In this document: one piece after another, positions 262 to 18,166 of the stretch
Layout: each line of letters opens with the position of its first letter
How positions within the stretch are numbered: the first letter of the stretch is position 1
Assembly (NCBI GenBank): GCA_963744725.1
Contig: CAVUUQ010000002.1
Coordinates: forward strand, 760,541 to 824,540
DNA length: 64,000 bases
From: an uncultured Actinomycetes bacterium
Lineage (GTDB): Bacteria; Actinomycetota; Thermoleophilia; Solirubrobacterales; 70-9
Direction: 5' to 3'
Notes under the pieces: generated by a model
What the model was told of the DNA's origin: nothing
Databases searched by the model: none
Seen by the model: only the letters and a program-made list of their open reading frames with translations
Translations under genes and position numbers: made by a program

Positions 262-350
262 GGAGGGGTGGCAGAGCGGTTGAATGCGGCGGCCTTGAAA
301 GCCGTTAGGCCTCGCAAGGGGTCTCGTGGGTTCGAATCCCACCCCCTCCG
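262..350 (+). tRNA. tRNA-Ser (anticodon UGA), type II with long variable arm
   Basis: GGAGGGG acceptor pairs with CCCCTCC. The D-arm GGCAGAGCGGTTGAATGC and the anticodon stem-loop GCGGC-CTTGAAA-GCCGT match the pattern. A long variable arm and the T-arm GTGGGTTCGAATCCCAC follow. It aligns base for base with the general shape of E. coli tRNA-Ser. No CCA is encoded. Confidence 0.9.
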
Positions 351-498
351 CTGAGGGTCCCGAATTTGGCTCTAGGGAGCGCAATGCGCAGGGTCTCGGA
401 GCCGCCGCTTGGTCCGGCTGGATCCGGTAGTGAAAGGGGCTGACGGTGGCACAGCCGGTGGCACAAAACGGCGAGCAAACCCGCATCCCAGGCCGGCT
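292..498 (+). repeat. Direct repeat copy 1: tRNA-Ser from the anticodon loop to the 3' end plus about 150 bp downstream (att-like)
   Basis: Near-identical to 14672-14886, with a few substitutions and one 8-nt indel. The extreme tRNA 3' end recurs again at 18144-18166. Confidence 0.85.
442..467 (+). repeat. GACGGTGGCACAGCCGGTGGCACAAA tandem half-site motif, copy 1
   Basis: The same 25-26-nt motif, carrying two GGTGGCACA half-sites, occurs at 14601-14626 and 14831-14855. All three copies lie next to tRNA-derived att-like sequences. Confidence 0.6.
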
Positions 499-618
499 AG
501 CGGCTGCGGTCGGAAAACGGCAGGGTGGCAAGAACGCTTCGGGCACTGAGCGGCAATCAGCGCCGCCGCAGCGCGTCCAGGCTGCGAGACTCGGCGCCGG
601 AATGCGGGTTGGAGGAAC

Positions 619-1842
619 GTGGGCAAGGGGATGAGACGTCTGGGGATCGCACTAACCGGCCTGGCCGCGGCGGCCGTGTTGGCGGGCGCGACGGCGTCGG
701 CGGCCGGCCCCTCAGAGGAGAAGGTGAGGCTGTCGAGCCAGCTTCACGACTTCGAAGGGGTGCTCGCCTACGACAGCTCGCATCTGCTCCTCACCTCGCG
801 CTACCCGCGACGGCTCGTCCGGATCAATGCCGACGGCTCGCTCGACCGATCCTTCGGCAACGGGGGACGGGCCAGCAAGCCCGCATACGCCGTCACCGTG
901 CTGCCGAACGGCAAGCTCCTGCTCGCCGACGAAGGCGCGCCCCCAGGCGAACCGTCGAACAGCGACGCGGAAGTGACCCGGCTCCTGCCGAACGGCAGAC
1001 CCGATCCGAGCTTCGGCGACGGCGGCACCGTCTTCATCGACTTCGGCGGCGGCTACGACGCTGCCAACTGTGTCGCCGCCGCCGCCAACGGCGACGTTCT
1101 CGTCGGCGGCGAAATGACCACCGCCGTGGGCCGCGGCGGCGGCAACGGGGTGCCGGCGTTCGCCCGCCTGCACCCCGACGGCAGCCTCGACCGCTCCTTC
1201 GGCGAGAACGGTGTGCGGCTGATCGAGAACGTGTACGAAACCGGCATCTTCGCAGTCGCTGCCACCCCCGACGGCGGCGTCGTCGGGGCGACCGGCGGCG
1301 AAGAGTTCTTCGCCGAAGAACTCTGGAAGCTGACCGCGGGCGGCTCGATTGACCGCAGCTTCGGCAAGCGGGGCCGCGTCAATCTTTTCGGCGACAAAGC
1401 GACCTTGCTTCTCCCCATCGAGGTGCTGCCGAGCGGCAGGATCCTGCTCGCCGGCAGCGGACCCATCGGCGGGCCCGAACCAGCCGCGGCGACCCGACTG
1501 CTGCCGAACGGCCGGACCGACCACTCCTTCGGCGACGACGGCTGGGCAAAAGCGAAGATCGGCGGCTTCGTCGACGCCTGGACGATGCTGCCGGGCGGCG
1601 ACATCCTGATCGCGATCTCGCAGGAATTCGGCAAAAAGCGGTCGACCGTCGGCGCGATCGCCTTCACCAGCAGCGGCCAGCTCGACCGGCGCTTCGGACA
1701 CGGCGGTCGTCTGCGGGTGCCCTTCCCCGGCTGGTTCCCGGAAGAAACCGTCGCCGCCCTGGGCAGGCGCCCCGTGTTCCTCGGCAGCGTCGGCAGGCAT
1801 GGCGGCACCTGGTTGGTGAAGATGCCGCCGCTGCGCCGCTAA
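619..1842 (+). CDS. Secreted delta-60 repeat (beta-propeller-like) protein
   Basis: 407-aa ORF with a GTG start (alternative ATG at 631). Signal peptide RRLGIALTGLAAAAVLAGATASAAG. Repeated LLPNG/DGSLDRSFGxxG units are typical of the delta-60 repeat family. Confidence 0.75.
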   Translation: MGKGMRRLGIALTGLAAAAVLAGATASAAGPSEEKVRLSSQLHDFEGVLAYDSSHLLLTSRYPRRLVRINADGSLDRSFGNGGRASKPAYAVTVLPNGKLLLADEGAPPGEPSNSDAEVTRLLPNGRPDPSFGDGGTVFIDFGGGYDAANCVAAAANGDVLVGGEMTTAVGRGGGNGVPAFARLHPDGSLDRSFGENGVRLIENVYETGIFAVAATPDGGVVGATGGEEFFAEELWKLTAGGSIDRSFGKRGRVNLFGDKATLLLPIEVLPSGRILLAGSGPIGGPEPAAATRLLPNGRTDHSFGDDGWAKAKIGGFVDAWTMLPGGDILIAISQEFGKKRSTVGAIAFTSSGQLDRRFGHGGRLRVPFPGWFPEETVAALGRRPVFLGSVGRHGGTWLVKMPPLRR

Positions 1843-1876
1843 CCGGAGGCCCTAGCGTGCTCCGATTTCTCTTGGC

Positions 1877-2172
1877 TTACGGACGGCGAAAGATGGCGTG
1901 GGTGCCGACTCGCCGCCAGATGACGTGAGGCTCGCCCGGGTTTACCTCCGCGCCATATTCGAACGTCGCCCGGCCGTCGTAGGCCCAGGTCATCTCCCAG
2001 ACCCCAGGATGCCCCTGCACCCGCTTGACGCGGAGCTTGGGATGGAATGCCTGGGCACCCCGGCGAGGTCGGCGATGAACTGCGCCACCGCAGCGCGGAA
2101 TTCCCGCTGCTGCTTGGGGCTCAGCCGATCCCAGTCGCGCCAGAACGACGCGAGCACTTCACGCGTCGGCAT
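1877..2172 (-). pseudogene. RelE/ParE-superfamily-like toxin, frameshifted (copy A)
   Basis: Starts MPTREVLASFWRDWDRLSPKQQREFRAAVAQFIADLAG, then loses frame near 2057-2063 through a 1-nt deletion relative to copy B. The correct C-terminus EYGAEVNPGEPHVIWRRVGTHAIFRRP* is readable in another frame and ends at 1877. Confidence 0.6.
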
Positions 2173-2418
2173 CGAGCGGCTTCGTGCGCTCGTCCAACGC
2201 GGCCAAGAAATCCTCGTCGTTCTCGAACCGGGTCACTCGACCGGCAGCAAGATCTCGTCAGCCTCGCGCTCGCGCTGCTGCCATTCCTGGGTCCAGAACC
2301 ATGCCTGCTCGGGGTCGATCCTGCCGTCGGTGATCTCCTTAAGCAGGATCACGGCACCATCGACTGCTCCGTCGGGGAGCCGGTCGACGAGGTCGTGAAG
2401 GTCAGCCTTGGTCACCAT
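2159..2418 (-). pseudogene. Putative antitoxin, frameshifted (copy A)
   Basis: MVTKADLHDLVDRLPDGAVDGAVILLKEITDGRIDPEQAWFWTQEWQQREREADE, then a premature stop. Copy B continues DLVAGRVTRFENDDDFLAALDERTKPLDADA. A 1-nt deletion near 2251-2256 explains the difference. Confidence 0.55.
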
Positions 2419-2453
2419 CCGGATTCTGACAGCCGCGAAGGGTGTTCACCAGC

Positions 2454-2641
2454 TCACGCTGCATCCTCGTCCGCTCCCGGATCTTCCAAAAATGCGTCAA
2501 GTAGAGCGGCGCCTTCCGGCTCGGTCCCCGGCATCAGGTGCCCGTAGAGGTCGAAGGTGACCGTGATCGAGGCGTGCCCTGGGCAGATGCGCCCGAAAGC
2601 ACCGTGGCGGATCCGCAGGATGCGAGGTCGGGGCGTCCGGC
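2454..2641 (-). pseudogene. Tyrosine recombinase (phage-type integrase) C-terminal remnant
   Basis: Reads ...LRIRHGAFG..GHASITVTFDLYGHLMPGTEPEGAALLDAFLEDPGADEDAA*, which resembles the conserved RH...LGHxSxxxTxxxYxH C-terminus with the catalytic Tyr. It is cut off at the IS630 insertion point and the spacing is shortened. Confidence 0.5.
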
Positions 2642-3694
2642 TAGTGACCTGAGTCATTGATCCGCTGGCAGTAGGAGGCGAGGCTCTCGAGAATCTCATC
2701 GGCGCTCTTGTGCCAGACGTAGGGCTTGGGGTTCGTCGTTCCAGTTGGCGATCCAGGTGCGGATCGAGGCGACCAGGTCGCGGACCGAGCGGTGGGCGCC
2801 CCGCTTGATCCACTTCGTGGTCAGCTCCGCGAACCAGCGCTCGACCAGATTCAGCCAGGAGCTGTAGGTCGGGCGTGAAATGCAGGGTGAAGCGTGGATG
2901 GCGCAAGAGCCAGCGTTGGATCTGCGGCGTCTCGTGGGTCGAGGAGTTGTCGAGCACGACGTGGACGTCGAGGTGCGTCTGGCACCGAGCGCTCGATCAG
3001 GCCCAAGAAACGACGGAACTCCTCGGCGCGGTGGCGGGGCGTCATCTCGGCGATCACCTTGCCGGAGGCGACGTCAAGCGCGGCGTAGAGGTTGGTGGTG
3101 CCGTTGCGGACGTAGTCGTGGGTCTGGCGCTCGGGGATCCCGGGCATCAGCGGCAGGATCGGCGCTGAGCGCTCGAGCGCCTGGATCTGGGACTTCTCAT
3201 CGACGCAGAGCACGACCGCGGCTTCGGGCGGGTTGAGGTAGAGCCCGACGATATCTCTCACCTTGTAGACGAACTGCGGGTCGGGCGAGAGCTTGAAGTG
3301 CTCTGAACAGATGGGGCTTCAGCCCGAACGCCCTCCAGATCCGGCTGACCGCGGTCTGGCTCATCCCGGTCTGGGTGGCCATCGATCTGGTCGACCAGTG
3401 GGTGGCGTTCGGCGGGCTCTCCTCGAAGGTCTTGACGATCACCCGCTCGATGTCTTCGTCGCCGATCTGGCGCGGCTTGCCGGGCCGCGGCTCGTCATGG
3501 AGACCGTCGAGGCCGCGCTCGGCGAAGCGGCCACGCCAGCGCCCGACGGTCGAGCGAGTGCAGCCAAGCCGAGCCGCGATCTCCTTGCTCGGCTCGCCCT
3601 CGGCCGCTGCCAGCACGATCCGGCAGCGCAGGCGAGGGCCTGGGCGCTGGTCGGGCGCCGAGCCCATCGCTCGAGCACCTCCCGCTCATCCTCG
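2641..3694 (-). pseudogene. IS630-family DDE transposase, multiply frameshifted and interrupted by IS21
   Basis: Pieces lie in three frames: the HTH part CRIVLAAAEGEPSKEIAARLGCTRSTVGRWRGRF, then VLCVDEKSQIQALER...THDYVRNGTTNLYAALDVASGKV, then LDNSSTHETPQIQRWL and PKPYVWHKSADEILESLASYCQRINDSGH*. The first ~11 codons (MPRRVDVELSE) lie at 5946-5913, on the far side of the IS21. The stop codon uses the flanking TA. Confidence 0.8.
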
Positions 3695-3822
3695 TGTAGG
3701 CGCCGCCTGAAAACTGACCCCCTCTCGCCGGTCGAAAACCGACCCCCCACCGACGGCGGCGAGAGCGTCCGGGGGGATGCAGAGCCTCGGCTCGACCGAA
3801 GAGGACGAGCCGGGAGGAAGGC

Positions 3823-5025
3823 GTGGTCGACGTGGAGCAGTGGGCGCAGATCAGGCGGATGCATGTGGTCGACGGGGTCTCGATCAAGGAGATCGCCAGG
3901 AGGACCGGGCTCGCGCGGAACACGGTCCGCGCGGCGGTCCGCTCCGAGGGGCCGCCGCGGTATGAGCGTGGGCCGCGGCCCTCCAAGCTCGACCCCTTCA
4001 AGGAGGAGATCGAGCGCCTGCTGCGCGCCGACCACCGGCTGCCCGGCACCCGCGTCCGCGAGCTGATCGCCGAGCTCGGCTACGAGGGCGGCAAGACGAT
4101 CCTCGACGACCACCTGCGCGAGGTCCGCCCGCGATTCATCCCGAGGCGCACCTATCAGCGCACCGTCTACCGGCCCGGCGAGATCTGTCAGTTCGACCTC
4201 TGGGAGCCCAAGGTTGAGATCCCGGTCGGCCACGGCCAGACCCGCCGCGCCTGGGTGGTCACGAGCGCCCTTGGGTGGTCGCGCGCCGGCGCCGGGGCGC
4301 TGATCTTCGCCAGGCAGGCCCCCGACATCCTCTGGGGAATGGGGCGGTGCCTGACGAGGTTGGGCGCCCTGCCCGAGACCGTGGTCTGGGACCGCGAGGC
4401 GGCGATCGCCCCGCGGGGGAGGCCGACCGACGCCTTCGCCGCCTTCTGCGGGGGGCTGCCTGTCGGCTGGTCGATCTGCGAGGCGGCCGACCCCGAGTCG
4501 AAGGGCGTGCTCGAGCGCAGCCACCGCTTCCTGCGCTCGAACTTCGAGCCGGGCCGTGCCTTCGCCTCGCCCGGGCACTTCCAGGGAGAGCTCGATGCCT
4601 GGTTCGAGAAGGCGAATCGTCGCCTGCACCGCGGCATCCGCGCGATCCCGGCCGAGCGCCTGGCCGAGGAGCGGGAGCGGATGCGCCCGCTGCCGGGTCG
4701 GATGCCCGAGACCGACCGCCGCTTCGTCACCCGCGTGCCCCAGCAGCCATATCTGCGCCTCGACACCAACGACTACTCGCTCGACCCGAGGGCGGCGGGG
4801 AGGCGGGTGGAGGTCAGGGCCTCCCAGCGCGAGATCACGGCGATCGAGCTGGGCACCGGCGCCCTCGTCGCCTCCCACCGCCGCTCCTTCGCCAGGGGCC
4901 TGACCTTCACCGACCCCGCCCACCAGGCCCTCCTCGACCGGTTGCGCGGCGAGCGCCGCCGCGGACCCCGGGTCGAGGTCGAGACCCGACCGCTCGCCCG
5001 CTACGACGAGCTGATCCCGGCATGA
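3823..5025 (+). CDS. istA: IS21 transposase IstA
   Basis: 400 aa with a GTG start. An N-terminal HTH (VSIKEIARRTGLARNTVR) and a DDE core (QFDLWEP...VVWDREAA...PESKGVLERSH) are typical of IstA. The stop overlaps the istB start (ATGA). Confidence 0.9.
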   Translation: MVDVEQWAQIRRMHVVDGVSIKEIARRTGLARNTVRAAVRSEGPPRYERGPRPSKLDPFKEEIERLLRADHRLPGTRVRELIAELGYEGGKTILDDHLREVRPRFIPRRTYQRTVYRPGEICQFDLWEPKVEIPVGHGQTRRAWVVTSALGWSRAGAGALIFARQAPDILWGMGRCLTRLGALPETVVWDREAAIAPRGRPTDAFAAFCGGLPVGWSICEAADPESKGVLERSHRFLRSNFEPGRAFASPGHFQGELDAWFEKANRRLHRGIRAIPAERLAEERERMRPLPGRMPETDRRFVTRVPQQPYLRLDTNDYSLDPRAAGRRVEVRASQREITAIELGTGALVASHRRSFARGLTFTDPAHQALLDRLRGERRRGPRVEVETRPLARYDELIPA

Positions 5026-5780
5026 CGAAGAGCGCCGAGCTCGCCCACCTCTTCCGCGCCCTGAAGGCGCCGGCCGCGGCACGGGCCGTGCCGAAGCTGG
5101 CCGAGCGGGCACGGGAGGAGGAGTGGTCGCACGAGCGCTTCCTCGAGGCCGTGCTCTCGACCGAGGTCGCCTCGCGCGAGAGCCACGGCGGCGAGAACCG
5201 GATCAAGGCGGCCCGCTTCCCGGCAAGGAAGACGCTGGAGGAGTTCGACTTCACCTTCCAGCGGTCGGTGAAGAAGCAGGTGGTCGAGCACCTGGGCCAG
5301 CTCGACTTCCTGCACGGTCGCGAGAACGTGGTGCTGCTCGGGCCGCCCGGGACGGGGAAGACGCACCTGGCGATCGCGATCGGCATCCGCGCCTGCCTGG
5401 CAGGGCAACGCGTCGCCTTCGCCACCGCGACCGAGTGGGTTGCCCGCCTCGGCGAGGCCAAGCGCCAGGGGGAGTTGGAGGCCGAGCTGCGCCGCCTCTC
5501 CTTCGTGCCGCTGATCGTGGTCGACGAGGTCGGCTACATCCCCTTCGACCCCGAGGCCGCCAACCTGATGTTCAGCCTGGTCTCCGCCAGATACGAGCGG
5601 GCCTCCCTGATCGTCACCTCGAACAAGCCGTTCTCGGCCTGGGGCGAGATCTTCGGCGACGAGGTCGTCGCCGCGGCGATGATCGACCGGCTGGTCCACC
5701 ACGCCGAGATCCTCGCGCTCAAGGGCGACAGCTACCGGCTGCGCGACAAGGACCTGGGTTCCCCACCGCCCCGCGACTGA
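5022..5780 (+). CDS. istB: IS21 helper ATPase IstB
   Basis: 252 aa. Walker A LLGPPGTGKTHLA, Walker B LIVVDEVGY and the IstB signature LIVTSNKPFSAWGEIFGD are present. Confidence 0.9.
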   Translation: MTKSAELAHLFRALKAPAAARAVPKLAERAREEEWSHERFLEAVLSTEVASRESHGGENRIKAARFPARKTLEEFDFTFQRSVKKQVVEHLGQLDFLHGRENVVLLGPPGTGKTHLAIAIGIRACLAGQRVAFATATEWVARLGEAKRQGELEAELRRLSFVPLIVVDEVGYIPFDPEAANLMFSLVSARYERASLIVTSNKPFSAWGEIFGDEVVAAAMIDRLVHHAEILALKGDSYRLRDKDLGSPPPRD

Positions 5781-6350
5781 GCGTTCCCGCCCGCTCCGCC
5801 TCGCCCTCCGGGCTCGGCTCCGCGGGCGGGTCCTCCACCGCCTACCGGGCGCTTTCCAGGGGGGTCAGTTTTAAACCGGCAGAAAGGGGTCAGTTTTCGA
5901 CCGGCGTTGACACCTCGCTGAGCTCGACATCTACACGTCGGGGCATGAGGCCTCCCATCGTCGCCTGTGATGGCGACGACTTCGACGGCCGATCATCTAT
6001 GCCTGCGGACTAACGACTCAGGTCACTAGCACAACGCGAGCATGGCCATAGGGAGCCCATCTCGCGGCGTTGCGGGAACTCCCAGCGCGCGCTCACCCGG
6101 GGCCGTCCTCGGAAAGCAGCGGCCTTCTCTGTCGCCCCATTTCGACTACCTCTCTCGAATTTCGTCACGCCGTAACTCGAGCGGTTTGAGCCTGGCCGCG
6201 ATCGGCGCCCCCATAGGCCAATACAGACGCTCAGGTTGTGCGCCTGCACACTCGCACGCGGCGATTCGGAGCCGAGACGTGAGATCGTGTCCGGTCGCGG
6301 ATTCAGGATGCTTCCCGGATCGTCGAGAGACCTCGCATCCAAGAGGCAAA

Positions 6351-6779
6351 TCAGCAGCGCGCAAAGGAGAGATCCCGTTCGAGCTTCTTGATCGTCTCGG
6401 CAGGCCGGCTCTTCGCGTTTCTCAGGAGGGTTGGCGTGTAGTTCTTCTGATTGAAGGTCGCACCCGCGAAACTGCCGTCGCGCACTACGCGGAGGACAAG
6501 TCGCACTGCGTCACCGCATCCATTCGGCGCTGAGTCGAGCGCTTCCAGTCTTTCCTCGGCAACCACCATTTCTGCGGCGTAGATTTCGTACCTCCGCTGT
6601 ATGTCGAACGGGCTATTGGCCGACTGAATAGATTTCCCCACCCGTTTAGTCGCTTCAATATCTTCTCGCACCTGGAGCGTGAATTGCTGTTTCCACTCTC
6701 TGGGGTCCTCCCTGCTGCTTCCACATGCCGCCAAGAAGATTGCCGCAAGAATTGCGCTGCTAATCAGGATCGCCCGCAT
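6351..6779 (-). CDS. Lipoprotein of unknown function
   Basis: 142 aa. Signal peptide with a lipobox, MRAILISSAILAAIFLAAC|GSS. The DNA is AT-richer than its surroundings. I recognise no family. Confidence 0.55.
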   Translation of the reverse strand: MRAILISSAILAAIFLAACGSSREDPREWKQQFTLQVREDIEATKRVGKSIQSANSPFDIQRRYEIYAAEMVVAEERLEALDSAPNGCGDAVRLVLRVVRDGSFAGATFNQKNYTPTLLRNAKSRPAETIKKLERDLSFARC

Positions 6780-7630
6780 AGCGAAGGACTACCCGTCTGA
6801 TCTCCGTTAAAGCGTGCGCCGCTGACCGGCTCATATCGTCAAAGATGTCTCCATCGCGCAGACCCCTCCTGGAGAGGCCGGATTCCGACCCGGACGGAAC
6901 GAGCTAGACCGTCCACGGCGCGGATACTGCTCGATCCCGCCCTACTCGTCCGGTCCTCGGACCGATGCAGAAGCGCCTAAACGATTCATGGCCGATCGAC
7001 TTCCGGTCGAATCCTTCCCACCGCAGCGGGCGCGGATTCTGAGCTGGGGCTGAGATGGCGCAGACCGCCGAGGTTCGCCGAGGAGATGACCGCGCCCGCC
7101 AGAGGCTCGTGACGACCGCGCGGATTCACGAGTGAGCGCACGCGTTCTCGCGACGCGAAGCGAAACTCGCCCCAGGCCATACCGAGATGCGGTCCATAAG
7201 TTCATCACCCCCTATGAGCGAGACCCAGACGCGCTCGAGCGGGCCTCCGCCGACATCGAGCACGCCGGTCAGCACGCCCCGACGCAGCAGCGGATGTATG
7301 GGAGCAGGCGCGGCTTCGTCAAGACGTTGCCGCTGTGCAGAGGCCCTCGGTGATCGTCGCGCCAGCTGAGCACCCACCCGGATCGGGAGCGCCCTAGGCT
7401 GCTCCCTGCTCTAAACGCACGCCCCGCACCTGCCTCAAATAAGGCGAATTCAGGCGGGCAGACACCGACGATGATCCGGGCCCCGACTCTCAGCGCCCGG
7501 GTCGAGCCGCATCGTAAAAGTCGATCTCCCGAAGCTGTCGTGGATAGTCGTCGAACCGCGCCTCGTCATCCAGCCAAGGAGCAAATTCGTAACCCAGGCT
7601 TTCCGGTTTGGTTAGACTCTCCAGATATAA

Positions 7631-8993: not shown

Positions 8994-11900
8994 CTATTGC
9001 GCCCCTCGTAGCTCGTCCACAGCGCCGGGCTTCAGTTTCCATTGGCAAGGGAGCGATTCTTCATCCCTAAGCGGGGCAAGCCAGTGGTAGAAATGCGATC
9101 TTTCCCGAACTATGCGTTCGGCATTTTCTTGTTTCAGAGGATTGACTGGAATGACACCATCTAGCTCTGCACAGATTGCCCTAAGGGGTGCTTTGTCAGC
9201 TTCAAAATCACCGGGTTTCCATCTCCAATCTCCAATGATGTCTAGATGTTCTCTCGAGTGATTGTGGACCACTTCACAGTTTGCATGTACAAGGGGTTCA
9301 CTAGGGCCGCTTTGCCGACAAACAGGTTCATTTTCGGCCTTGACCCAAACTTCTTGGCCCGGACGATAGCTAAACACTCCGGAGGCTGAAACCGCCCAAC
9401 GTAGCGCTGCGTGTGGTGCAACATATTCGTCATATTCCCCATGACACTGTGGCGATTTAATTCCTTTAGCTTCCGTCACTAACAGTTCTCTTGCTTCCCG
9501 TCGAAATTCAGGAACGAATTTTGGGGGTAGTTCGGTACTGGCGTTAAACCCATAACCGCTTGGATCCCACCGACACATGTTGAAATCGTAGGCGCGTTCT
9601 TTTACCCGACTGTGTTTTGGCGAGAAGGCGGGCGCTAGTTCGGATACCTGTTCTTCTTGCTCTTTGCCGAACCTCGTGAGGTTCATGAGAAGGTGTGGTG
9701 CTCTCCTGGGCCCAGTGTCGTTGAGCGTCACGGTCGCAACAGTGGTTTCGCCGGCTTCATTTTCGGTCTCATAGTGCTCTTCAAAGCCGACCAGAACCCG
9801 TGCCGCCCTATCTCGCTGAACTTCACTTGAGTTCAGGGCGCGGTTGTAGACCCGAACGTCGTCGATGCGGCCTTTGAAGCTCGCGCCGAAGACATCGCAG
9901 CCGATCTGCAGCGGCCCTTCGGCCGTCGTCAGGGTTGGGGCGACGTTGGTGCTGTGTTCTTCGTCGCCGAGGGCGCCGTCGACGTAGAGGCGGATGACGT
10001 TGCCGTCGTCGGTCAGAGCGATGTGAGACCAGGCGGGCTCGGGCAGCGGTTCTTCTCCGTAGACGCCGCGGAAGCCTTCGGCGCCGCCTTTGCGCACCCA
10101 AGCCTTCGGAATTTCGTTTTGGCCGGCGAGGAGCTCGTAGGCGTAGGGCTCTTCTTTGCCTGGCGAGTTTTCGTCGGCCATCGAGATCACCGGCAGGGCT
10201 TCTTCTCCCCAGCCCACCGGCCGCACCCAAGCCTCGAGCGTGAATTCTTCGGTCAGTTGCAGGTCTTCGGTGGCGGTGATCGTTACGCAATCTTCTTCGC
10301 CGTCGAACTCGAGCGAGCCGCCGTATTTACCTCTGGCCCATTCGGCGCCTGCGATCGTCCCGGTGTGACCGGCGCCGGTCAGGTCTTCGACCGTGGATCC
10401 TTCGCCTTCGTCGAAGGAGTAAGCAGCGATCGGGCTGCGCTGGGGGGTCTGAATCCCGGTGCTTTCGTTGACCGCCATTTCACCGGGATCGAGCGCTCGG
10501 TTGTAGATCCGCACCTCGTCGATGCGGCCGTCGAAGTAGTCGCCGGTTTCGGTGGAGCCGCCGATCTCGAGGTCGCCTTCCGTGGTGAGGATCGGTTCGG
10601 CTGAGCCGTTGTCGACGAGCTGGCCGTTGACGTAGAGGAAGGTGCGGTTGCCGCCGAAGACCAAGGCGACGTGGCTCCAGGCGTGGGCGTCGAGCGGATC
10701 GTCGGCGTGGATCAGTTCCTGGCCTTCTGCCGCCGCCCCTTCAGGACGGTCGGAGATGGCACCGCCCTCGTAGATCGCGTAGCCGAGCCCGCCTTCGCGC
10801 TGCTTGGCGATCAGCGGCGCTGCTTCGTTTTCGCCGCCGCTCGGGCGGACCCAGGCTTCGAGGGTGAATTCTTCGGTGAAGTCGAGATCAGGCGCGTCGG
10901 GGATCCGCAGCAGGTCTTCTTCGGAGGCGTCGAATTCATAGGCGCCGCCGAAGCGGCCTTTGGCCGTCCAGTTGGCGCCTTCGACCGTCGCCGTGTGGTT
11001 GGCGCCGCTGAGGTCTTCGGCGGTTTCGCCTTCGTCTTTGTCGAAGGAGTACTCGGCGACCGGGCCCTGCTGGGGGGTCTGGATCGGCGCCAGGTCGTTC
11101 TTCACTTCGGCTTCGGAGAGGGCGCGGTTATAGATCCGGGCCTCGTCGATCCGGCCGGTGAACTGGCCGTCGGGGATGTCGCAGCCGATCTTCATCGCGC
11201 CGCTGCCGGTCGCCGGAGAAGTCGGCGCGTATTCGGTGCCGGCCAGTTCGCCGTCGACGTACACGCGCAGGTAGGCGCCGTCGTACGTGGTCGCGATGTG
11301 CTCCCAGGCGTCGGCCCGGAGTTCCGTTTCGCCGATCGCGTACTCGGCTTCCCCGCCTTCGCCGATGAAGCCTTCGGCCTTGTGTTCTTCGCGGGAGCCG
11401 AGACCGAGGCCGTAGGCGAGATCGCCTTCTGATTCCTTGACGATCACCGGGTCGTCGAAGACGCCGCCCTCGGGGCGGACCCAGGCCTCGAGGGTGAATT
11501 CTTCGGAGAGCCGCAGGTCTTCGGCGTCGGCGATGGAGAGGCATTCAGTCCCGCCTTTGCCGTCGAAGCCGATCGCGCCGCCGTACTTGCCCCGCACCCA
11601 GGTACCGGCTTCGATCGTTGCCGGGTGTTCGTTGCCGCTCACGTCTTCGACGGTGGTGTCTTCGCCTTCGCCTTCGTCGAAGGAGTACTCGGCGATCGGT
11701 CCCTGCTGGGGGGTCTGGATCGGGGCGAGCATGTCGGTGCCAATTTCGGTGGGGATCAGGGCGCGGTCGTAGAGGCGCACCTCGTCGATCCGGCCCTTGA
11801 AGGCGTCGTCGGCGCCTTCGAAGATGTCGCCGCCGATCAAGACCGCGCTTTCGCTCGCTTTCGCCAGTGAGGCTGGCTCGGTGCATTTCAGCTGGCCGTC

Positions 11901-13214
11901 GACGTAGAGGCGAAGGAAGGCGCCGTCGAAGCTGAGGGCAAGGTGCGACCAGGCCTTCGCCGGCAGTGGGGCGCCCGGGGAGTTGACCGCGTGGATGCCG
12001 TCGTCGCCTTCGACGAAGCCGGCCGGGCCTTCATCTGCGCCTTCGGCGTGGAGCTGGTAGCTGAGGCCGCCTTCGCGTTCCTTGGTGACGACGGCGCTCC
12101 ATTCGTTTGCTTCGTCGGGCCGCACCCAAGCCTCGAGGGTGAATTCTTCTTCGAAGTCAAAGGCGGGGTCTTCGGGAACCTGGACGAGCGTGCCTTCTTC
12201 GCCGTCGAAGTGGAGGGCCGAGCCGTATTTGCCTTTCGCCCATTCGGCGCCTTCGATGGTGGCGGTGTGTTCGTTGCCTGAGGCGTCGGTGGCGGTGGTG
12301 CCTTCGTCCTCGTCGAAGGCGTAGGCGGCGACCGGGCCGGCGGGCGCGGTTTCGATCGGGGTCGCCATGTCTTCGCCGACTTCTGAGGCATCTAGCGGGC
12401 GGTCGTAGAGGCGAACCTCGTCGATCCGGCCGTCGAAGTATTCGGGGCCGTGTTCGCCGCCGAGGATGTCGGCGCCGATCAGAAGGTCGCCTTCTGAGGT
12501 TTGTACTTCTGAGGCGGGGCCGGTGTCGACCAATTCGCCGTTTACGTAGAGGCGGAGGTGGGCGCCGTCGTCGGTTAAGGCGACGTGGGACCAGGCGTGG
12601 AGGGGAAGGGCGGCGGTGCCGGCGGCGCCTTCTTCGATCCAGGTCTGATTTGAGATATAGCCTTCCGGCACCCCTTTTTCTTTGCCACCGACGTAGAGCG
12701 CGTAGGAGAAGTATTCGTCGGTCTGCTTGGCGATGATCGGGGTCCAGAAGTGTTCTTCGCGGGGGCGGACCCAGGCCTCGAGGGTGAATTCGCCTTCGGT
12801 GAAGCGCAGATCTTCGGAGTCCGGAATCGTTACGACATCGCCGCCTTCTGGGCCGAATTCGAGGGCTCCTCCGTAGCGGCCCTTGACCCGGGTGGCGCCT
12901 TCGATTGTGGCGGTGTGTTCGTTGCCGCTCTCATCTTCGGCGGTATTGCCTTCGGGTTCGTCGAAGGAGTACTCGGCCACCGGGCCTTCGCCGCCGGCGG
13001 CGGCGCGGGCGAGCTCAGGGGCACCACGGGTCCCACCCCCCCAAGGCGCAATCCACACCAGGAGGATCAAGAGCGCTGAAAACAGCAGCACTGCGAGCAC
13101 AGACGAATCGATGCGCCTCCGCAACATTGCAACCCCCTGAAAGAGCCCGGACCGAGACTCGGTGGCGAGAACGGTTAGGAGTCGCCTTTTATTGTGGTCT
13201 TCTCCTTTTGTCAA
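8994..13214 (-). CDS. Giant surface/secreted protein: N-terminal membrane anchor or signal, five LamG (concanavalin-A-like, LamG_3-type) repeats, and a ~280-aa Cys-rich C-terminal domain of unknown family
   Basis: 1406-aa ORF (alternative start M30 at 13127). Hydrophobic segment VLAVLLFSALLILLVWIAPW. Five ~210-aa repeats each contain GP[VI]AxYSFDExEG...SGNEHTATIEG...FTLEAWVRP...AWSH[VLI]AL...LYV[DN]G...GRIDEVR[LI]Y[DN]RAL. The C-terminal ~280 aa (8994-9836) resemble nothing I can name. Confidence 0.85.
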   Translation of the reverse strand: MTKGEDHNKRRLLTVLATESRSGLFQGVAMLRRRIDSSVLAVLLFSALLILLVWIAPWGGGTRGAPELARAAAGGEGPVAEYSFDEPEGNTAEDESGNEHTATIEGATRVKGRYGGALEFGPEGGDVVTIPDSEDLRFTEGEFTLEAWVRPREEHFWTPIIAKQTDEYFSYALYVGGKEKGVPEGYISNQTWIEEGAAGTAALPLHAWSHVALTDDGAHLRLYVNGELVDTGPASEVQTSEGDLLIGADILGGEHGPEYFDGRIDEVRLYDRPLDASEVGEDMATPIETAPAGPVAAYAFDEDEGTTATDASGNEHTATIEGAEWAKGKYGSALHFDGEEGTLVQVPEDPAFDFEEEFTLEAWVRPDEANEWSAVVTKEREGGLSYQLHAEGADEGPAGFVEGDDGIHAVNSPGAPLPAKAWSHLALSFDGAFLRLYVDGQLKCTEPASLAKASESAVLIGGDIFEGADDAFKGRIDEVRLYDRALIPTEIGTDMLAPIQTPQQGPIAEYSFDEGEGEDTTVEDVSGNEHPATIEAGTWVRGKYGGAIGFDGKGGTECLSIADAEDLRLSEEFTLEAWVRPEGGVFDDPVIVKESEGDLAYGLGLGSREEHKAEGFIGEGGEAEYAIGETELRADAWEHIATTYDGAYLRVYVDGELAGTEYAPTSPATGSGAMKIGCDIPDGQFTGRIDEARIYNRALSEAEVKNDLAPIQTPQQGPVAEYSFDKDEGETAEDLSGANHTATVEGANWTAKGRFGGAYEFDASEEDLLRIPDAPDLDFTEEFTLEAWVRPSGGENEAAPLIAKQREGGLGYAIYEGGAISDRPEGAAAEGQELIHADDPLDAHAWSHVALVFGGNRTFLYVNGQLVDNGSAEPILTTEGDLEIGGSTETGDYFDGRIDEVRIYNRALDPGEMAVNESTGIQTPQRSPIAAYSFDEGEGSTVEDLTGAGHTGTIAGAEWARGKYGGSLEFDGEEDCVTITATEDLQLTEEFTLEAWVRPVGWGEEALPVISMADENSPGKEEPYAYELLAGQNEIPKAWVRKGGAEGFRGVYGEEPLPEPAWSHIALTDDGNVIRLYVDGALGDEEHSTNVAPTLTTAEGPLQIGCDVFGASFKGRIDDVRVYNRALNSSEVQRDRAARVLVGFEEHYETENEAGETTVATVTLNDTGPRRAPHLLMNLTRFGKEQEEQVSELAPAFSPKHSRVKERAYDFNMCRWDPSGYGFNASTELPPKFVPEFRREARELLVTEAKGIKSPQCHGEYDEYVAPHAALRWAVSASGVFSYRPGQEVWVKAENEPVCRQSGPSEPLVHANCEVVHNHSREHLDIIGDWRWKPGDFEADKAPLRAICAELDGVIPVNPLKQENAERIVRERSHFYHWLAPLRDEESLPCQWKLKPGAVDELRGAQ
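9837..12986 (-). repeat. Five tandem ~630-bp coding repeats (LamG modules)
   Basis: The protein periodicity is visible directly in the translation. The repeats are diverged but recognisable at DNA level, for example recurring gaattcttcggt / ggcctcgagggtgaattc blocks. Confidence 0.8.
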
Positions 13215-13335: not shown

Positions 13336-13848
13336 TCAAGCGCCGGGGTCCGCCGCCGCCTCGACCGCGTCGAGCGCCTCTAGGACGGCGTTACCTCGCT
13401 TGCCTCCTAGCCCGTAGAAATGCTCAACCGCGCCACGTCTCCGCTCGGTGCCAACGAGCTCCAGTACCCCGAGCGAGCGGAGTACGCTGAGGTGGTAGGT
13501 GACGTTGGGGAGCCCGTCCGGCAGCGCCTCGTTGAGCGTGACCGGAGAGAGCCCTCGAGCCCCGCGCATCTTCCTGATGATCGAGACGCGGAGAGGATGT
13601 CCGAGCGCACGACCCACCGCTGCCACATCTTCGGCCGAGGGAACTGATTTGACTGTTCGGGGTGCGGCCACGAGCTGACTTGAGACTACGGATCGCCGCG
13701 CCGTCCTGATCCCACTTGGCGCCTGGCTCTCCTTGGCGGCCCAGACAGCCACTGGGCTGCCCGACCGCCGACGCCGTCGCCAGATCGTCGTCCTCTCGCT
13801 CGGGTTCGGAACGATCGGTGCGGCATCTACGGGATCGGCGGTGGTCAT
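13336..13848 (-). CDS. ArsR-like winged-helix transcriptional regulator (start uncertain)
   Basis: The core VAAVGRALGHPLRVSIIRKMRGARGLSPVTLNEALPDGLPNVTYHLSVLRSLGVLELVGTERRRGAVEHFYGL fits the ArsR/SmtB HTH pattern. The N-terminal ~70 aa are low-complexity, so the true start may be internal. Confidence 0.65.
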   Translation of the reverse strand: MTTADPVDAAPIVPNPSERTTIWRRRRRSGSPVAVWAAKESQAPSGIRTARRSVVSSQLVAAPRTVKSVPSAEDVAAVGRALGHPLRVSIIRKMRGARGLSPVTLNEALPDGLPNVTYHLSVLRSLGVLELVGTERRRGAVEHFYGLGGKRGNAVLEALDAVEAAADPGA

Positions 13849-13910
13849 GCCGGATCAGCCCTGTTGCCGAGCAGGTGGATCAACTCGCCGCAGACCTGGC
13901 GGGCACGGGT

Positions 13911-14135
13911 TTACTGCATCAGCCGATCGGCGTCCTCATCGCGACCACGCCGAACGTCCTCGGGCTGGTCGATGCCCTCTTCGGCGCTAACCCTTAGGCG
14001 CCAGAGAGTCTCGGCAAGCTCGTCTTTCGGGACCGTGATGGCGAAGATCTCGCGCCGATCCTCATTTGCGTACCGCTCGGCGGCCTCGAAATCCTCCCGC
14101 TTGATCATCAGCCCGGGGTCAGTGCTCCCGGTCAT
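13911..14135 (-). CDS. Small acidic hypothetical protein
   Basis: 74 aa counted from the internal ATG (MTGSTDPGLMIKREDFEAAERYANEDRREIFAITVPKDELAETLW...). It has the same orientation as the ArsR-like and LamG genes and lies just upstream of them. The call is weak. Confidence 0.3.
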   Translation of the reverse strand: MTGSTDPGLMIKREDFEAAERYANEDRREIFAITVPKDELAETLWRLRVSAEEGIDQPEDVRRGRDEDADRLMQ

Positions 14136-14444
14136 GCGCTGGAGGAGCAGCTGGTGACAGCGCGGCGCGTTCGTTGCGGCCGATCTGAAGCGTGGCGTCC
14201 GACATCGGTTCCCCTTTCGTGGGGGCACCGAAGAGCGGCCCACGGTGTCAGCCCCAGGTCAGGGCGACGGGCAGTACCGTCTCTGTCGGCATCGAAGGAT
14301 CGTTCTTCGGTGCCAGCCCCGGGGGTGTTCCTGCACCTCCGGGGCGCTATGGAATTGTCACGGCGCGGCGACCGTAGCGCCGCCGCGGTGGCGAAGCGAG
14401 TCCGAATCGGCGGTAATCGGCGCCGATCGCCTCATATTGAGGGT

Positions 14445-14468
14445 ATTTCGGGCACTAGTGCCCGAAAT
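14445..14468. repeat. 24-bp perfect palindrome ATTTCGGGCACTAGTGCCCGAAAT
   Basis: Perfect dyad symmetry, flanked by a further inverted pair CCTCATAT (14431-14438) / ATATGAGG (14477-14484). Confidence 0.8.
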
Positions 14469-14533
14469 GGAGGGGATATGAGGGGGTGGTTCGGGATTCC
14501 CTGGCGGGTCGGAAACCCCCGATTAGCAGGGAA

Positions 14534-14563
14534 AGCGGCTGAAGGGATTCGAACCCTCGACCT
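14534..14563 (-). other. tRNA 3'-end-like fragment (T-arm plus acceptor strand), not a complete tRNA
   Basis: The minus strand reads AGGTC-GAGGG-TTCGAAT-CCCTT-CAGCCGC-T. No matching 5' acceptor, D-arm or anticodon stem lies upstream. Confidence 0.55.
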
Positions 14564-14600
14564 TCTGCATGGGCAAGTAAAACGCCAATAGAGGCCGAGC

Positions 14601-14626
14601 GACGGTGGCACAGGCGGTGGCACAAA
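14601..14626 (+). repeat. GACGGTGGCACAGGCGGTGGCACAAA motif, copy 2
   Basis: Matches 442-467 and 14831-14855. It sits 45 bp to the left of the second tRNA-derived repeat. Confidence 0.6.
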
Positions 14627-14671
14627 TTGAGAAAATGGCCTTCCGGAGCGGAACGCGGGCACCCACCCGGC

Positions 14672-14886
14672 GCCTTGAAAGCCGTTAGGCCTTATCCAGG
14701 TCTCGTGGGTTCGAATCCCACCCCCTCCGCTTAGAGGCTCGAATTTGGCTCTAGGGAGCCGTATGCGCAGGGGCTAGGAGGCCGCCGGTCGGTCCGGTTG
14801 TGTCCGGCTGGATCCGGTAGTGAAAGGGCTGACGGTGGCACAGCCGTGGCACAAAACGGCGAGCAAACCCGCATGCCAGGCCGACT
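14672..14886 (+). repeat. Direct repeat copy 2: partial tRNA-Ser (anticodon loop to 3' end, 14672-14731) plus downstream region
   Basis: GCCTTGAAAGCCGTTAGGCCT...GTCTCGTGGGTTCGAATCCCACCCCCTCCGCT, followed by CGAATTTGGCTCTAGGGAGC... as at 292-498. The tRNA 5' half is missing, so this is not a functional gene. Confidence 0.85.
14831..14855 (+). repeat. GACGGTGGCACAGCCGTGGCACAAA motif, copy 3
   Basis: Lies within repeat copy 2. It is one nucleotide shorter than copy 1. Confidence 0.6.
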
Positions 14887-15199
14887 TACGATCGCAACGG
14901 GAATGCGTCAGAGTGGCAAAAGCGCTACGAGCTGCCTGTTGCCGGCACCGAAGTAGGCTCGAACGCGTCTCTTCGATAGTTGCCAGCAGTAACTCGATCG
15001 CTACCGCGAGCAGTGGTCCGGCTGACGCGGTGTGGGAATCTCGACTCCTCTTCGGGGAGCAACGGATCGAGGCCTATTACGCATCACTGGCTTGTGCAGC
15101 GGGCGCCGCCGTCACCCGAGCGCCGGCGACCGCCGCCGGCGGCCGACATAGTCAGGGGGCGCAACCTCGATCGGCTCACGTGGTTGGTTAGACATGCGG

Positions 15200-15534
15200 A
15201 GGGAGCGCCGAGCAATTTGGAGAGTGGGCGGCTACCGCTCGCGCCGCAGCTCATCACTCTCGACAGCGCGGGTCGCGTCGTCGTAGTCGGCACCGTCAAC
15301 GTCGCCTTCGACAAATCCTTGGGGGCGACCGCGGAGCCGGCGGTCACTCGATTGCTCCCGGAAGGCACTCCCGACACGGGTTTCGGCAGCGAAGGTCTTA
15401 CCCTGCTTGAACCGCTTTCCCGCTGGCCCGGCGACGCGACCGGGCTGGTTGACGGGCCAGACGGCTCGATCGTGATCGCGGGCGCGAGCGCGCCGACACT
15501 GGACGGTATTGGAACCAAACGTCGGTTCGCCTGA
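15200..15534 (+). pseudogene. Delta-60-repeat protein fragment (paralog of 619-1842)
   Basis: ...GRVVVVGTVNVAFDKSLGATAEPAVTRLLPEGTPDTGFGSEGLTLL...DGPDGSIVIAG carries the same LLPxGxxDxxFGxxG unit. No signal peptide or credible start is present. The matching 3' tail lies 1.9 kb away at 17404-17510 and is frameshifted. Confidence 0.4.
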
Positions 15535-15661: not shown

Positions 15662-16609
15662 ATGTGCACGGGCATCCGGTTCAGCGACGGGGAGGGCCAT
15701 CTCTACCTGGCGCGCAACCTCGACTGGACGAGCGGCTATGGAGAGCAGGTCGTCATGACGCCTCGGGGGTACGCACCCAAGTCACCGTTCGATGGGGTGG
15801 CCGGCATCCGGCATGCGGTCATCGGAATGGGCATCGTGGAGGAGGACACGCCGCTCTACTTCGACTGCGGCAACGATGCCGGCATCGCCGTGGCGGGCCT
15901 CAACTTCCCGGGGTACGCCGAGTACGCCGCTGAGCCTGCGGAGGGGGCGACCAACGTCGCCGCGTTCGAGTTCCCGCTCTGGGTGGCCTCGCAGTTCGAG
16001 AGCGTCGACGAGGTCGAGGCGGCGCTACGCGATGTCGCCATCGTCGATCAGCCGATTAACGAGAAGTACCCGAGCTCCCTGCTCCATTGGGTCATCGGCG
16101 ACTCGCAGCGCGCGATCGTGGTGGAGTACACCGCCGGCGGCATGCACGTCTTCGACGACGACGTCGACGTCCTCGCCAACCAGCCGGGCTTTTCCTGGCA
16201 CCACGAGAACCTGCGCAACTACCTCAACGTGACGCCGGATTTCCCCGAGGACACCGTGCTCGGCCGAGCGCAGTTGGAGCCCTTCGGCTCGGGGTCGCAC
16301 ATGCGGGGGATCCCGGGGGACTACTACTCACCGTCTCGGTTCGTGCGTGCGGCGTATGTCAACGCCCACTATCCGGAGAAGTCGACCGAGGAAGAGAACG
16401 TCAGTCGTGCGTTCCACACCCTGCAGCAAGTCGCGATGGTGGACGGATGCGCAGCCATGGGCTCGGGCGAGTTCGAGAAGACCATCTACACGGGGCTCTT
16501 CTCGTCCCGCACGAATACCTACTACTGGAACACCTACGAGGATCCGGCCATCCAGAGCGTCGCGATGGCGGACCACTCGCCCGACGGAACGGAGCTTGCC
16601 GTCGTGTAG
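15662..16609 (+). CDS. Choloylglycine hydrolase / penicillin V acylase family (Ntn-hydrolase, linear amide C-N hydrolase)
   Basis: 315 aa starting MCTGIRF, with the nucleophile Cys at position 2 after Met removal. LARNLDW and further family blocks are present. A GGAGG Shine-Dalgarno sequence lies 7 nt upstream. Confidence 0.85.
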   Translation: MCTGIRFSDGEGHLYLARNLDWTSGYGEQVVMTPRGYAPKSPFDGVAGIRHAVIGMGIVEEDTPLYFDCGNDAGIAVAGLNFPGYAEYAAEPAEGATNVAAFEFPLWVASQFESVDEVEAALRDVAIVDQPINEKYPSSLLHWVIGDSQRAIVVEYTAGGMHVFDDDVDVLANQPGFSWHHENLRNYLNVTPDFPEDTVLGRAQLEPFGSGSHMRGIPGDYYSPSRFVRAAYVNAHYPEKSTEEENVSRAFHTLQQVAMVDGCAAMGSGEFEKTIYTGLFSSRTNTYYWNTYEDPAIQSVAMADHSPDGTELAVV

Positions 16610-16635
16610 ACGGCCTTGAGCCGACACACGGTCGG

Positions 16636-17094: not shown

Positions 17095-17116
17095 GGTTCC
17101 GATAAGAAACTTCTAG

Positions 17117-17146
17117 TCGGGGAGACAGGATTTGAACCTGCAACGC
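17117..17146 (-). other. tRNA 3'-end-like fragment (tRNA-Pro-like acceptor CGGGGAG), not a complete tRNA
   Basis: The minus strand reads GCGTT-GCAGG-TTCAAAT-CCTGT-CTCCCCG-A. No cloverleaf can be built from the upstream sequence. Confidence 0.5.
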
Positions 17147-17542
17147 TCCGCCCCTAGCCCGCCGATGGAGTGCTGAACGCCTCCGGCCGCATCCCACAGT
17201 CCCCGCGTCCCCGGCAGCGGACTTCAGCGAACCAATCGGACGATGCATCCGGTACAAATGCCGGTACGACGTGCCCTTGGCGACACATGCTGCACGACCC
17301 CCGCGGGTCTAGCGCCGGGAAGCGTCCCGGGAGCGAAAGAGTCGCGATCATGCCTGGCAGCTGTTCGATTTCCATCGCTTCGATCAGACCGGCTACGCCG
17401 CCTCCCGGAAGAGACCGTCGCCGCCCTGGCAGGCGCGCCGTGTTCCTCGGCAGCGCCGGCAGGCACGGCGGCACCTGGTTGGTGAAGATCCCGCCGCTGC
17501 GCCACTGACCGGGGCGCCCTCGCGGCTCCGGTTCTTTGCGGC

Positions 17543-17837
17543 TTACGGACGGCAAAAGATGGAGTGGGTGCCGACTCGCCGCCAGATGACGTGAGGCTCG
17601 CCCGTTGACCTCAGCGCCGTATTCGAACGTCGCTCGGCCGTCGTAGGCCCAGGTCAGCTCCCAGACTCCGGGATGCCCTCGCACTCGCTTAACGCGGAGC
17701 TTGGGATGGAATGCCTGAGCACCCCCTGCGAGGTCGGCGATGAACTGCGCTACCGCAGCACGAAATTCCCGCTGCTGCTTGGGGCTCAACCGATCCCAGT
17801 CGCGCCAGAACGAGGCGAGCACTTCACGCGTCGGCAT
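17543..17837 (-). pseudogene. RelE/ParE-superfamily-like toxin, frameshifted near the 3' end (copy B)
   Basis: MPTREVLASFWRDWDRLSPKQQREFRAAVAQFIADLAGGAQAFHPKLRVKRVRGHPGVWELTWAYDGRATFEYGAEVN. A 2-nt deletion near 17601-17606, relative to copy A, then causes read-through into the artefactual 227-aa ORF 17154-17837. Confidence 0.55.
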
Positions 17838-18081
17838 CGAGCGGCTTCGTGCGCTCGTCCAACGCGGCCAAGAAATCGTCGTCGTTCTCGAACCGAGTCA
17901 CTCGACCGGCAACAAGATCCTCGTCAGCCTCGCGCTCACGCTGCTGCCATTCCTGAGTCCAGAACCATGCTTGCTCGGGGTCGATCCTGCCATCGGTGAT
18001 CTCCTCAAGCAGAATCACGGCACCATCAACTGCTCCGTCGGGGAGCCGGTCGACAAGGTTATGGAGGTCAGCCTTCGTCAC
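17824..18081 (-). CDS. Putative antitoxin (copy B, apparently intact, GTG start)
   Basis: 85 aa: VTKADLHNLVDRLPDGAVDGAVILLEEITDGRIDPEQAWFWTQEWQQREREADEDLVAGRVTRFENDDDFLAALDERTKPLDADA*. The stop overlaps the toxin start by 14 nt, as is usual for type II TA operons. Confidence 0.5.
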   Translation of the reverse strand: MTKADLHNLVDRLPDGAVDGAVILLEEITDGRIDPEQAWFWTQEWQQREREADEDLVAGRVTRFENDDDFLAALDERTKPLDADA

Positions 18082-18143
18082 ATCCGGATTCTGACAGCCG
18101 CGAACGGTGTTCACCAGCCGGCATCGGAAAGGTGCGCCGTGAT

Positions 18144-18166
18144 TTCCGAATCCCACCCCCTCCGCT
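18144..18166 (+). repeat. Direct repeat copy 3: extreme 3' end of tRNA-Ser (att remnant)
   Basis: TTCCGAATCCCACCCCCTCCGCT versus the tRNA GTTCGAATCCCACCCCCTCCGCT. 20 consecutive identical nucleotides (18147-18166). Confidence 0.7.

Follow-up and report, generated by a model that had tools for sequence, protein, structure and literature searches.

Probable remains of successive tyrosine-integrase elements behind the tRNA-Ser(UGA) gene of a Solirubrobacterales genome

We analysed a stretch of 64,000 nucleotides from an uncultured actinobacterium of the Solirubrobacterales (GenBank assembly GCA_963744725.1, contig CAVUUQ010000002.1, positions 760,541 to 824,540 of the forward strand; hereafter 'the window', whose coordinates are given without prefix). 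The 18 kb lying between its tRNA-Ser(UGA) and K+-channel genes are, with a probability that we put at about 0.85, the remains of at least two related tyrosine-integrase elements inserted successively, i.e. of tandem accretion. An earlier note made from the sequence alone had proposed tyrosine-recombinase integration into the 3′ end of the tRNA gene, twice in tandem, and this proposal is supported by the direct repeats, by empty and occupied sites in related genomes, by an integrase found at the same site and by the arms of the attachment (att) sites.

Three direct copies of the tRNA-Ser(UGA) 3′ end

The intact tRNA-Ser(UGA) gene, which the earlier note had placed at 262–350, is the sole tRNA of the window: ARAGORN predicts it at 262–351 on the + strand and Rfam at 262–350 (60.5 bits), and according to the genome-wide tRNA list it is single in the whole 3.94-Mb, two-contig genome. 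The window has exactly three occurrences of CGAATCCCACCCCCTCCGCT, the 20-mer that ends this gene; they are found at 333, 14712 and 18147, always on the + strand, and over 100 dinucleotide-preserving shuffles the 20-mer was met 0 times. The three direct copies reported earlier are thus real and can be aligned, and their spacings of 14,379 bp (island A) and 3,435 bp (island B) agree with the islands of about 14.4 and 3.4 kb that had been announced.

The copies differ markedly in extent. Copy 2 (14672–14731) begins in the anticodon loop and covers the tRNA as far as its 3′ end, as first described; its alignment with the gene comprises 21 identical nt, a differing block of 7–8 nt in the variable arm (CGCAAGGG in tRNA-Ser, TATCCAG in copy 2) and 32 identical nt. 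Because its variable arm is foreign, copy 2 is not derived from the resident tRNA gene. Copy 3 (18147–18166) consists of the 20-nt core alone, the bases upstream being only loosely tRNA-like.

Empty and occupied sites in related genomes

Forty relatives were searched for the site and ten loci were then fetched; named records put the compared genomes in the Solirubrobacterales, Actinomycetota. Three congeneric ones (G015, G007 and G016) display an empty site, where the tRNA-Ser(UGA) core is followed within approximately 50–190 bp by an orthologue of the K+-channel gene, which in the window begins at 18328, 162 bp past copy 3. Window positions 2–352 and 18379–19200 match adjacent positions in these three genomes at 75–82% (blastn), and 2–352 matches the tRNA-Ser loci of nine relatives at 76–82%. 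The empty site joining the tRNA to the right flank that the earlier note had anticipated does therefore exist, and synteny with relatives bears out its statement that ordinary genes resume after copy 3.

Four other congeners carry islands at tRNA-Ser, each closed by a partial tRNA-Ser that starts at the anticodon loop and includes the 3′ end: G005 (3.7 kb, no integrase), G019 (9.8 kb, intact integrase), G001 (5.9 kb, no integrase found) and G011 (4.5 + 9.7 kb in tandem, with three copies and an integrase fragment). None of the cargo of the window islands was recovered in the relatives' islands at this site. Variability at the locus is accordingly bounded by the tRNA, the genomes compared having different islands or none, and stacking at the tRNA-Ser site is recurrent within the genus.

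Several of these loci have features of their own. In G011 (C1:917000–936999), the three tandem tRNA-Ser copies are followed, before the K+-channel gene, by another 1.3 kb whose start is arm-like in sequence. In G010 (C1:1933000–1945000), the tRNA and the gene that follows the K+ channel are present and the K+-channel gene itself is absent; judged from this genome, the 'core' right flank is itself variable. Besides the integrase, the island of G019 (C91:47000–63000; 2621–12366 of that stretch) encodes a Cro/CI-type regulator and a small terminase subunit (phrog_1496, E 2e-18), and this intact 9.8-kb element resembles either what is left of a phage or a satellite-like island.

An integrase family at the tRNA-Ser site

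The intact integrase of G019 is a 411-aa tyrosine integrase with PF00589 and SAM-like N-terminal domains, which is encoded on the same strand as the tRNA and ends 37 bp short of the partial copy. G011 has a related integrase fragment in the same position and orientation, a further Solirubrobacterales metagenome-assembled genome encodes an 81%-identical integrase 600 bp from tRNA-Ser(UGA), and in G091 a 48%-identical integrase is followed by a small two-gene cassette, a P arm and a partial tRNA-Ser, all on one strand. From these loci, the canonical layout is tRNA, P′ arm, cargo, integrase, (cassette), P arm and partial tRNA, with everything from the integrase to the partial tRNA on the tRNA strand in G019, G011 and G091.

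The window departs from this layout. An intact integrase adjoins attR in G019, whereas the window has only an inverted remnant of 41 codons, and both this remnant and the accompanying cassette lie on the strand opposite to the tRNA, unlike in G019, G011 and G091. The remnant reads GHASITVTFDLYGHLMPG... in translation and shares 84% identity over 32 aa with the C-terminus of the integrase in the tRNA-Ser island of G011. A six-frame PF00589 search of the genome found no integrase inside the islands, and the remnant surfaced only when the integrase of a relative was used as query. Elsewhere in the genome, PF00589 matches comprised two high-scoring Xer-like genes together with fragments or frameshifted genes, and no intact tyrosine recombinase was retrieved by this search beyond the two Xer-like genes. 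The integrase remnant announced by the earlier note is thus present, if reduced to about 41 C-terminal codons (2454–2579, − strand), and its claim that the islands retain no intact integrase can be maintained.

Arms of the attachment sites

Beyond the core itself, the islands share sequences resembling the arms of an attP site. The approximately 200 bp past copy 1 and past copy 2 are 81% identical, and both are approximately 80% identical to the stretch after the tRNA-Ser 3′ end on one soil metagenome contig that has different cargo; a metagenome scan for the P′ arm yielded this one contig, which carries no integrase. In the arm alignment, the window has GGTGGCACA twice where G011, at equal distance from the core, has GGTGCCAC twice. 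A tandem motif of the GGTGGCACA type is also located 45–70 nt upstream of copy 2, and the paired arm motif is found in three places only in the entire genome. Equivalent tandem repeats (TGGCGCAC or GGTGCCA) occur upstream of the partial copies in G091, G019, G005 and G011. Across several species, the positions of the tandem repeats thus match while their sequence is lineage-specific, and these repeats would be arm-type sites of attP, to which the integrase would bind. On this reading copy 2, which stands between a P arm (left) and a P′ arm (right), would be a hybrid joint between two tandem elements.

At its left end island B has a core and a P′ arm related to that of island A, and at its right end a core; it contains no recombinase and has lost its entire right arm.

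Composition and coding density

Over 6–18 kb, the GC content is 54–67%, versus 70–71% for the genome, and the tetranucleotide L1 distance amounts to 0.32–0.56 (genome mean 0.196, 99th percentile 0.381), which exceeds the 95th to 99th percentile of the genome; this distance is normal before 6 kb and past 18 kb. The AT-richer cargo described in the earlier note is thus confirmed for 6–18 kb, with a return to normal after copy 3; the first 6 kb are not atypical. Long open reading frames (ORFs) supported by GC content at third codon positions (GC3) cover 21% of the islands versus 86% of the remaining 46 kb, and because of this difference the frameshifts of the islands are more likely to represent decay than sequencing error.

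History of the two islands

According to the reading that we favour, the tRNA-like stretch of the attP of each element would have recombined with the tRNA gene, rebuilding a working tRNA on the left and leaving a partial copy on the right; excision would then produce the junction ...GTGGGTTCGAATCCCACCCCCTCCGCT joined directly to the sequence after 18166. Decay would have followed: the integrase gene of A would have been cut to its last 41 codons, IS630 would have inserted first and IS21 afterwards, a piece of a tRNA-Gly-type element end would have been joined into island A, and island B would have lost its integrase and right arm while keeping the 20-nt core. As to the order of the two insertions, the usual model would put A, which is next to the intact tRNA, last (PMC5704250). 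As the genome holds no intact integrase of their kind, the islands are probably now fixed accessory DNA.

The integrase remnant and the cassette are co-directional and 35 nt apart, as in G091 and G109, and lie 12 kb from the P arm expected to follow them. The simplest account of this wrong-way block would be an inversion of most of island A, roughly 1.86–14.58 kb, to which we give even odds. Reversing it would restore the order integrase, cassette, approximately 27 nt, arm repeats and partial tRNA, with the spacing of G091. The presence of the same junction in the 716-bp block of island B (see below) is one reason for giving it no more than that. An integrase-mediated inversion between the inverted Ser and Gly cores was considered and rejected, the left breakpoint having no core.

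The relationship between the two islands is less simple than their succession. Because their arms are as distant from each other as from the foreign arm of the metagenome contig, A and B would seem to be independent acquisitions rather than products of duplication. Nevertheless, they share a 716-bp block (1736–2453 and 17403–18118) at 92% identity; with arms that are independent and a block that is so alike, the block must have been exchanged later between A and B. The idea that B arose recently by duplication of the left part of A was discarded, since the arms have no more than 81% identity to each other and are equally far from the foreign arm. At approximately 2454–2500, where the homology between A and B ends, no degenerate fourth att core was found.

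Several observations weigh against the history outlined above. The shared block (92%) is far more alike than the arms (81%), a difference left unexplained by two insertions alone. Copy 3 is devoid of a P arm, so that the right end of island B is set by 20 nt alone, and the small cassette begins 65 nt before this copy. The insertions are deduced from species sharing only 75–82% flank identity, not from near-identical strains, and the first 6 kb of the window are host-like in composition. Finally, the proposed inversion breakpoints show no inverted repeats, and the comparison of 14576–14671 with the sequence following the integrase gene in G011, G019, G005, G001 and L024 gave scores no better than shuffles.

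Alternatively, copies 1 and 3 could stem from one integration of a single element, and later duplication or unequal recombination inside the island could have given rise to the middle copy and to the similarity of A and B. Both islands indeed open with an arm, a delta-60 gene and a small cassette, and have the 716-bp block in common. We nevertheless regard this scenario as very unlikely, as the P′ arms, at 81% identity, are as distant from each other as from the arm of a metagenome contig from another organism, the variable arm of copy 2 is unlike that of the resident tRNA and a canonical P arm lies upstream of it, and identities of 81% and 92% in adjacent segments do not fit one duplication.

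The islands could also still be mobile as cis-mobilizable elements (CIMEs) devoid of integrase: if a newly arriving element or phage provided an integrase in trans, A, B or both could be excised through the three cores. The exact cores, the arms with intact tandem repeats kept by copies 1 and 2 and the mobilization of CIMEs documented elsewhere (PMC5704250) are compatible with this possibility. Its chances appear very slim nonetheless, since no intact integrase of this family is left in the genome, copy 3 is without a P arm and island A is rearranged inside.

That the repeats result from an assembly artefact or a chance match is scarcely credible, given the 0 matches in shuffles, copies and arms that are diverged rather than identical (which a collapsed-repeat misassembly would not yield), the same architecture at the same site in several independent genomes and the long intact ORFs in the rest of the window.

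Contents of the islands

The features of the window are compiled in table 1. The insertion sequence (IS) elements that the earlier note had listed are indeed there: IstA and IstB of the IS21-family element score above the NCBIfam cut-offs, and the IS630-type transposase, with its HTH and DDE_3 domains, has several frameshifts. The IS630-family element is delimited by terminal inverted repeats of 38 nt (2633–2670/6000–6037), and the IS21-family element nested in it by inverted repeats at 3684–3748 and 5859–5923. The latter has a host-like GC content of 73%, no second copy of it was found in the genome, and it may still be active.

Further along island A, the ORFs of 6038–8990 gave no Pfam or PHROG matches. 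The LamG gene has, for window positions 10225–13011, an 87%-identical paralogue on the same contig (C2:338201–340984), which points to a part of the island cargo being host-like or exchanged with a chromosomal gene. Positions 13932–14429, in the right interior of island A, are 68–74% identical to C2:231191–231741, beside tRNA-Thr(UGU), and this similarity suggests a further related island end at that place.

The right end of island A also includes an attachment fragment of tRNA-Gly(GCC) type (14415–14575), 98% identical over 53 nt to C1:1272552–1272604 and 74% identical over 176 nt to C1:1268959–1269133, which is inverted with respect to the tRNA-Ser copies and lies approximately 20 bp from the tRNA-Ser-type P arm. 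Island A is a rearranged mosaic, not one coherent element. The perfect 24-bp palindrome of this fragment recurs after a partial tRNA-Gly copy (C1:1268978) and may be a protein-binding site of Gly-type elements. At C1:1261712–1302054, the tRNA-Gly(GCC) gene is trailed by four direct partial copies (approximately 1268959, 1272552, 1299245 and 1302016), each starting at the anticodon loop and reaching the 3′ end, with an integrase fragment at 1267252–1267494; this locus is a second, larger tandem island array in the genome. One may even imagine, as an unlikely extension, that the tRNA-Ser and tRNA-Gly elements of this Solirubrobacterales lineage are small phage-satellite-like islands whose integrases read lineage-specific arm repeats (GGTGGCACA, GGTGCCAC or TGGCGCAC), the inverted tRNA-Gly junction recording an exchange of ends. 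If true, end exchange between elements of different tRNA specificity would be a way to switch target.

In island B, the duplicated block holds the last codons of the delta-60 gene and cassette copy B (17543–18081), which is broken by a 2-nt deletion. The real tRNA-Pro(GGG), of which this island carries an orphan 3′ end, is located within C1:1019296–1019960, with a homologue of the 98-aa 'toxin-like' protein approximately 300 bp downstream.

Copies A and B of the cassette are broken by different deletions. Among 120 genomes of the family, 17 have an intact homologous pair; they are spread through 14 of 58 genera, and the small overlapping genes sometimes have a different upstream partner. Two small overlapping genes and a patchy distribution fit a toxin–antitoxin (TA) module. 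However, searches of Pfam, NCBIfam, PHROGs and PDB sequences gave no credible match to either protein, singly or as a profile; a profile of eight homologues searched against PDB gave short chance-level matches only, the best (E 4e-5) being to a 17-residue stretch of a WD-40 protein. Of the TA modules mentioned in the earlier note there remains a duplicated small two-gene cassette, which matches none of these family collections and should be called TA-like only, not assigned to a known TA family.

Table 1. Features of the window around the tRNA-Ser(UGA) gene, in order of position.
Feature	Position	Strand	Basis
Left flank, 5′ end of gene for transporter of major facilitator superfamily type	1..192	−	Conserved core genome; sequence read directly
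tRNA-Ser(UGA), attL junction of island A, core 333–352	262..351	+	ARAGORN, Rfam
P′ arm of island A (left end), tandem GGTGGCACA repeats 445–466	353..544	+	Similarity to 14732–14932, metagenome contig and G011 arms
Delta-60 repeat/DUF5122 beta-propeller gene, 407 aa, intact	619..1842	+	Pfam PF17164; TIGR02608 124 bits, above cut-off
Cassette copy A: 85-aa 'antitoxin-like' and 98-aa 'toxin-like' genes, two 1-nt deletions	1877..2418	−	ORF fragments
Tyrosine integrase remnant, last ~41 codons, opposite to tRNA	2454..2579	−	tblastn with G019 integrase, E 8e-10; blastn orientation
IS630-family element, transposase with several frameshifts, split by nested IS21	2633..6037 (2633–3683 + 5924–6037)	−	HTH_32/HTH_28, DDE_3; three-frame read
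IS21-family element, intact istA 3823–5025 and istB 5025–5780	3684..5923	+	NF033546 194.5 bits, NF038214 294 bits, above cut-offs
AT-richer orphan cargo, no recognizable families	6038..8990	.	GC 54–60%; tetranucleotide L1 up to 0.56
1406-aa protein, five LamG_3 repeats	8994..13214	−	Pfam PF13385, E 3.5e-147
ArsR/SmtB-like helix–turn–helix (HTH) regulator	13336..13848	−	Pfam HTH_20; NF033788 below cut-off
tRNA-Gly(GCC)-type attachment fragment: 3′ 40–53 nt and P′ arm, 24-bp palindrome 14445–14468	14415..14575	−	Identity to C1 sequences
P arm of island A, tandem GGTGGCACA repeats 14604–14625	14576..14671	+	Motif search; equivalents in relatives
Copy 2, partial tRNA-Ser with foreign variable arm, putative attR of A fused to attL of B	14672..14731	+	Repeat alignment
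P′ arm of island B, GGTGGCACA/GTGGCACA repeats 14834–14855	14732..14932	+	Similarity to A arm, G011
Fragment of second delta-60/DUF5122 gene	14980..15534	+	Pfam PF17164, E 4e-6; similarity to island A gene only weak
Choloylglycine (bile-salt) hydrolase family gene, intact	15662..16609	+	Pfam CBAH E 1.5e-88; NF038245 389.6 bits, above cut-off
Orphan tRNA-Pro(GGG) 3′ end, 25 nt identical	17117..17146	−	Matches C1:1019345–1019369
716-bp duplicate of 1736–2453, 92% identical	17403..18118	−	blastn self-comparison, alignment
Copy 3, 20-nt core, attR of island B, without P arm upstream	18147..18166	+	Repeat alignment
Right flank, K+-channel (Ion_trans_2) gene	18328..19083	+	Pfam; tblastn and blastn synteny

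Comparison with known systems

The locus can be compared with several types of integrative elements, among them the arrays of streptococcal integrative and conjugative elements (ICEs), integrative and mobilizable elements (IMEs) and CIMEs. In the tandem accretion model described for them, integration takes place at a gene end, the resident decays to an integrase-less element keeping its att sites, and a second integration then gives the succession attL, element 1, hybrid att, element 2 and attR (PMC5704250). As in accretion of the ICESt1/ICESt3 type (PMC5704250), the window has three direct copies, a hybrid middle site with P and P′ arms and a decayed state. Island B in particular has no integrase or transfer genes, an att site at both ends and a related neighbour, its right site being a bare core. 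Unlike the streptococcal arrays, the window contains no recognizable conjugation or mobilization genes, the host belongs to the Solirubrobacterales and all that is left of the right att of island B is a 20-nt core.

In Dehalococcoides, several islands follow in tandem a single-copy small RNA gene, ssrA, each bounded by a direct repeat of 20 bp taken from the 3′ end of that gene, and many of them have no integration module and are considered to be either fixed or mobilized in cis (McMurdie et al. 2011, PMC3146451). Tandem islands, 20-nt 3′-end repeats and a single-copy RNA gene are likewise found in the window. However, the Dehalococcoides islands rely on a serine recombinase, DsiB, next to attL and target the transfer-messenger RNA, whereas here a tyrosine integrase is next to attR and the target is tRNA-Ser.

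Of the set typical of phage-inducible chromosomal islands of about 10–15 kb (integrase, repressor, replication module and packaging-redirecting gene such as a small terminase), none was found in the window; the related island of G019 has the integrase, a Cro/CI-like regulator and the small terminase, with no recognized replication gene. The actinomycete integrative and conjugative elements (AICEs) of the pSAM2 type and SLP1, like actinophages that integrate into tRNA genes, reside in actinobacterial hosts, use a tyrosine integrase and carry in attP an identity segment that begins at the anticodon loop of the tRNA and ends with its 3′ end. The window resembles them by its actinobacterial host, its tyrosine integrase and its 60-nt identity segment over this same part of a tRNA. 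However, no RepSA or prim-pol domains and no FtsK/SpoIIIE-like transfer domains were found by Pfam in 30 island ORFs, and because replication or transfer genes were not found, the islands are not AICEs.

More generally, the two islands have several attributes of tRNA-targeting genomic islands, i.e. bounds made of a tRNA and direct repeats, presence or absence at these repeats and, for 6–18 kb, an atypical composition. In principle nothing here is new, as it is textbook knowledge that islands targeting tRNA genes accumulate in tandem and decay. In any case, tRNA-Ser(UGA) now stands as a well-defined integration hotspot in poorly studied, mostly uncultured soil Actinomycetota, for which the analysis identifies the integrase family and the arm motifs using the site. 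It also provides clean boundaries to annotate these 18 kb as accessory DNA, including a gene of the bile-salt-hydrolase family, a surface protein with five LamG repeats and an apparently intact IS21.

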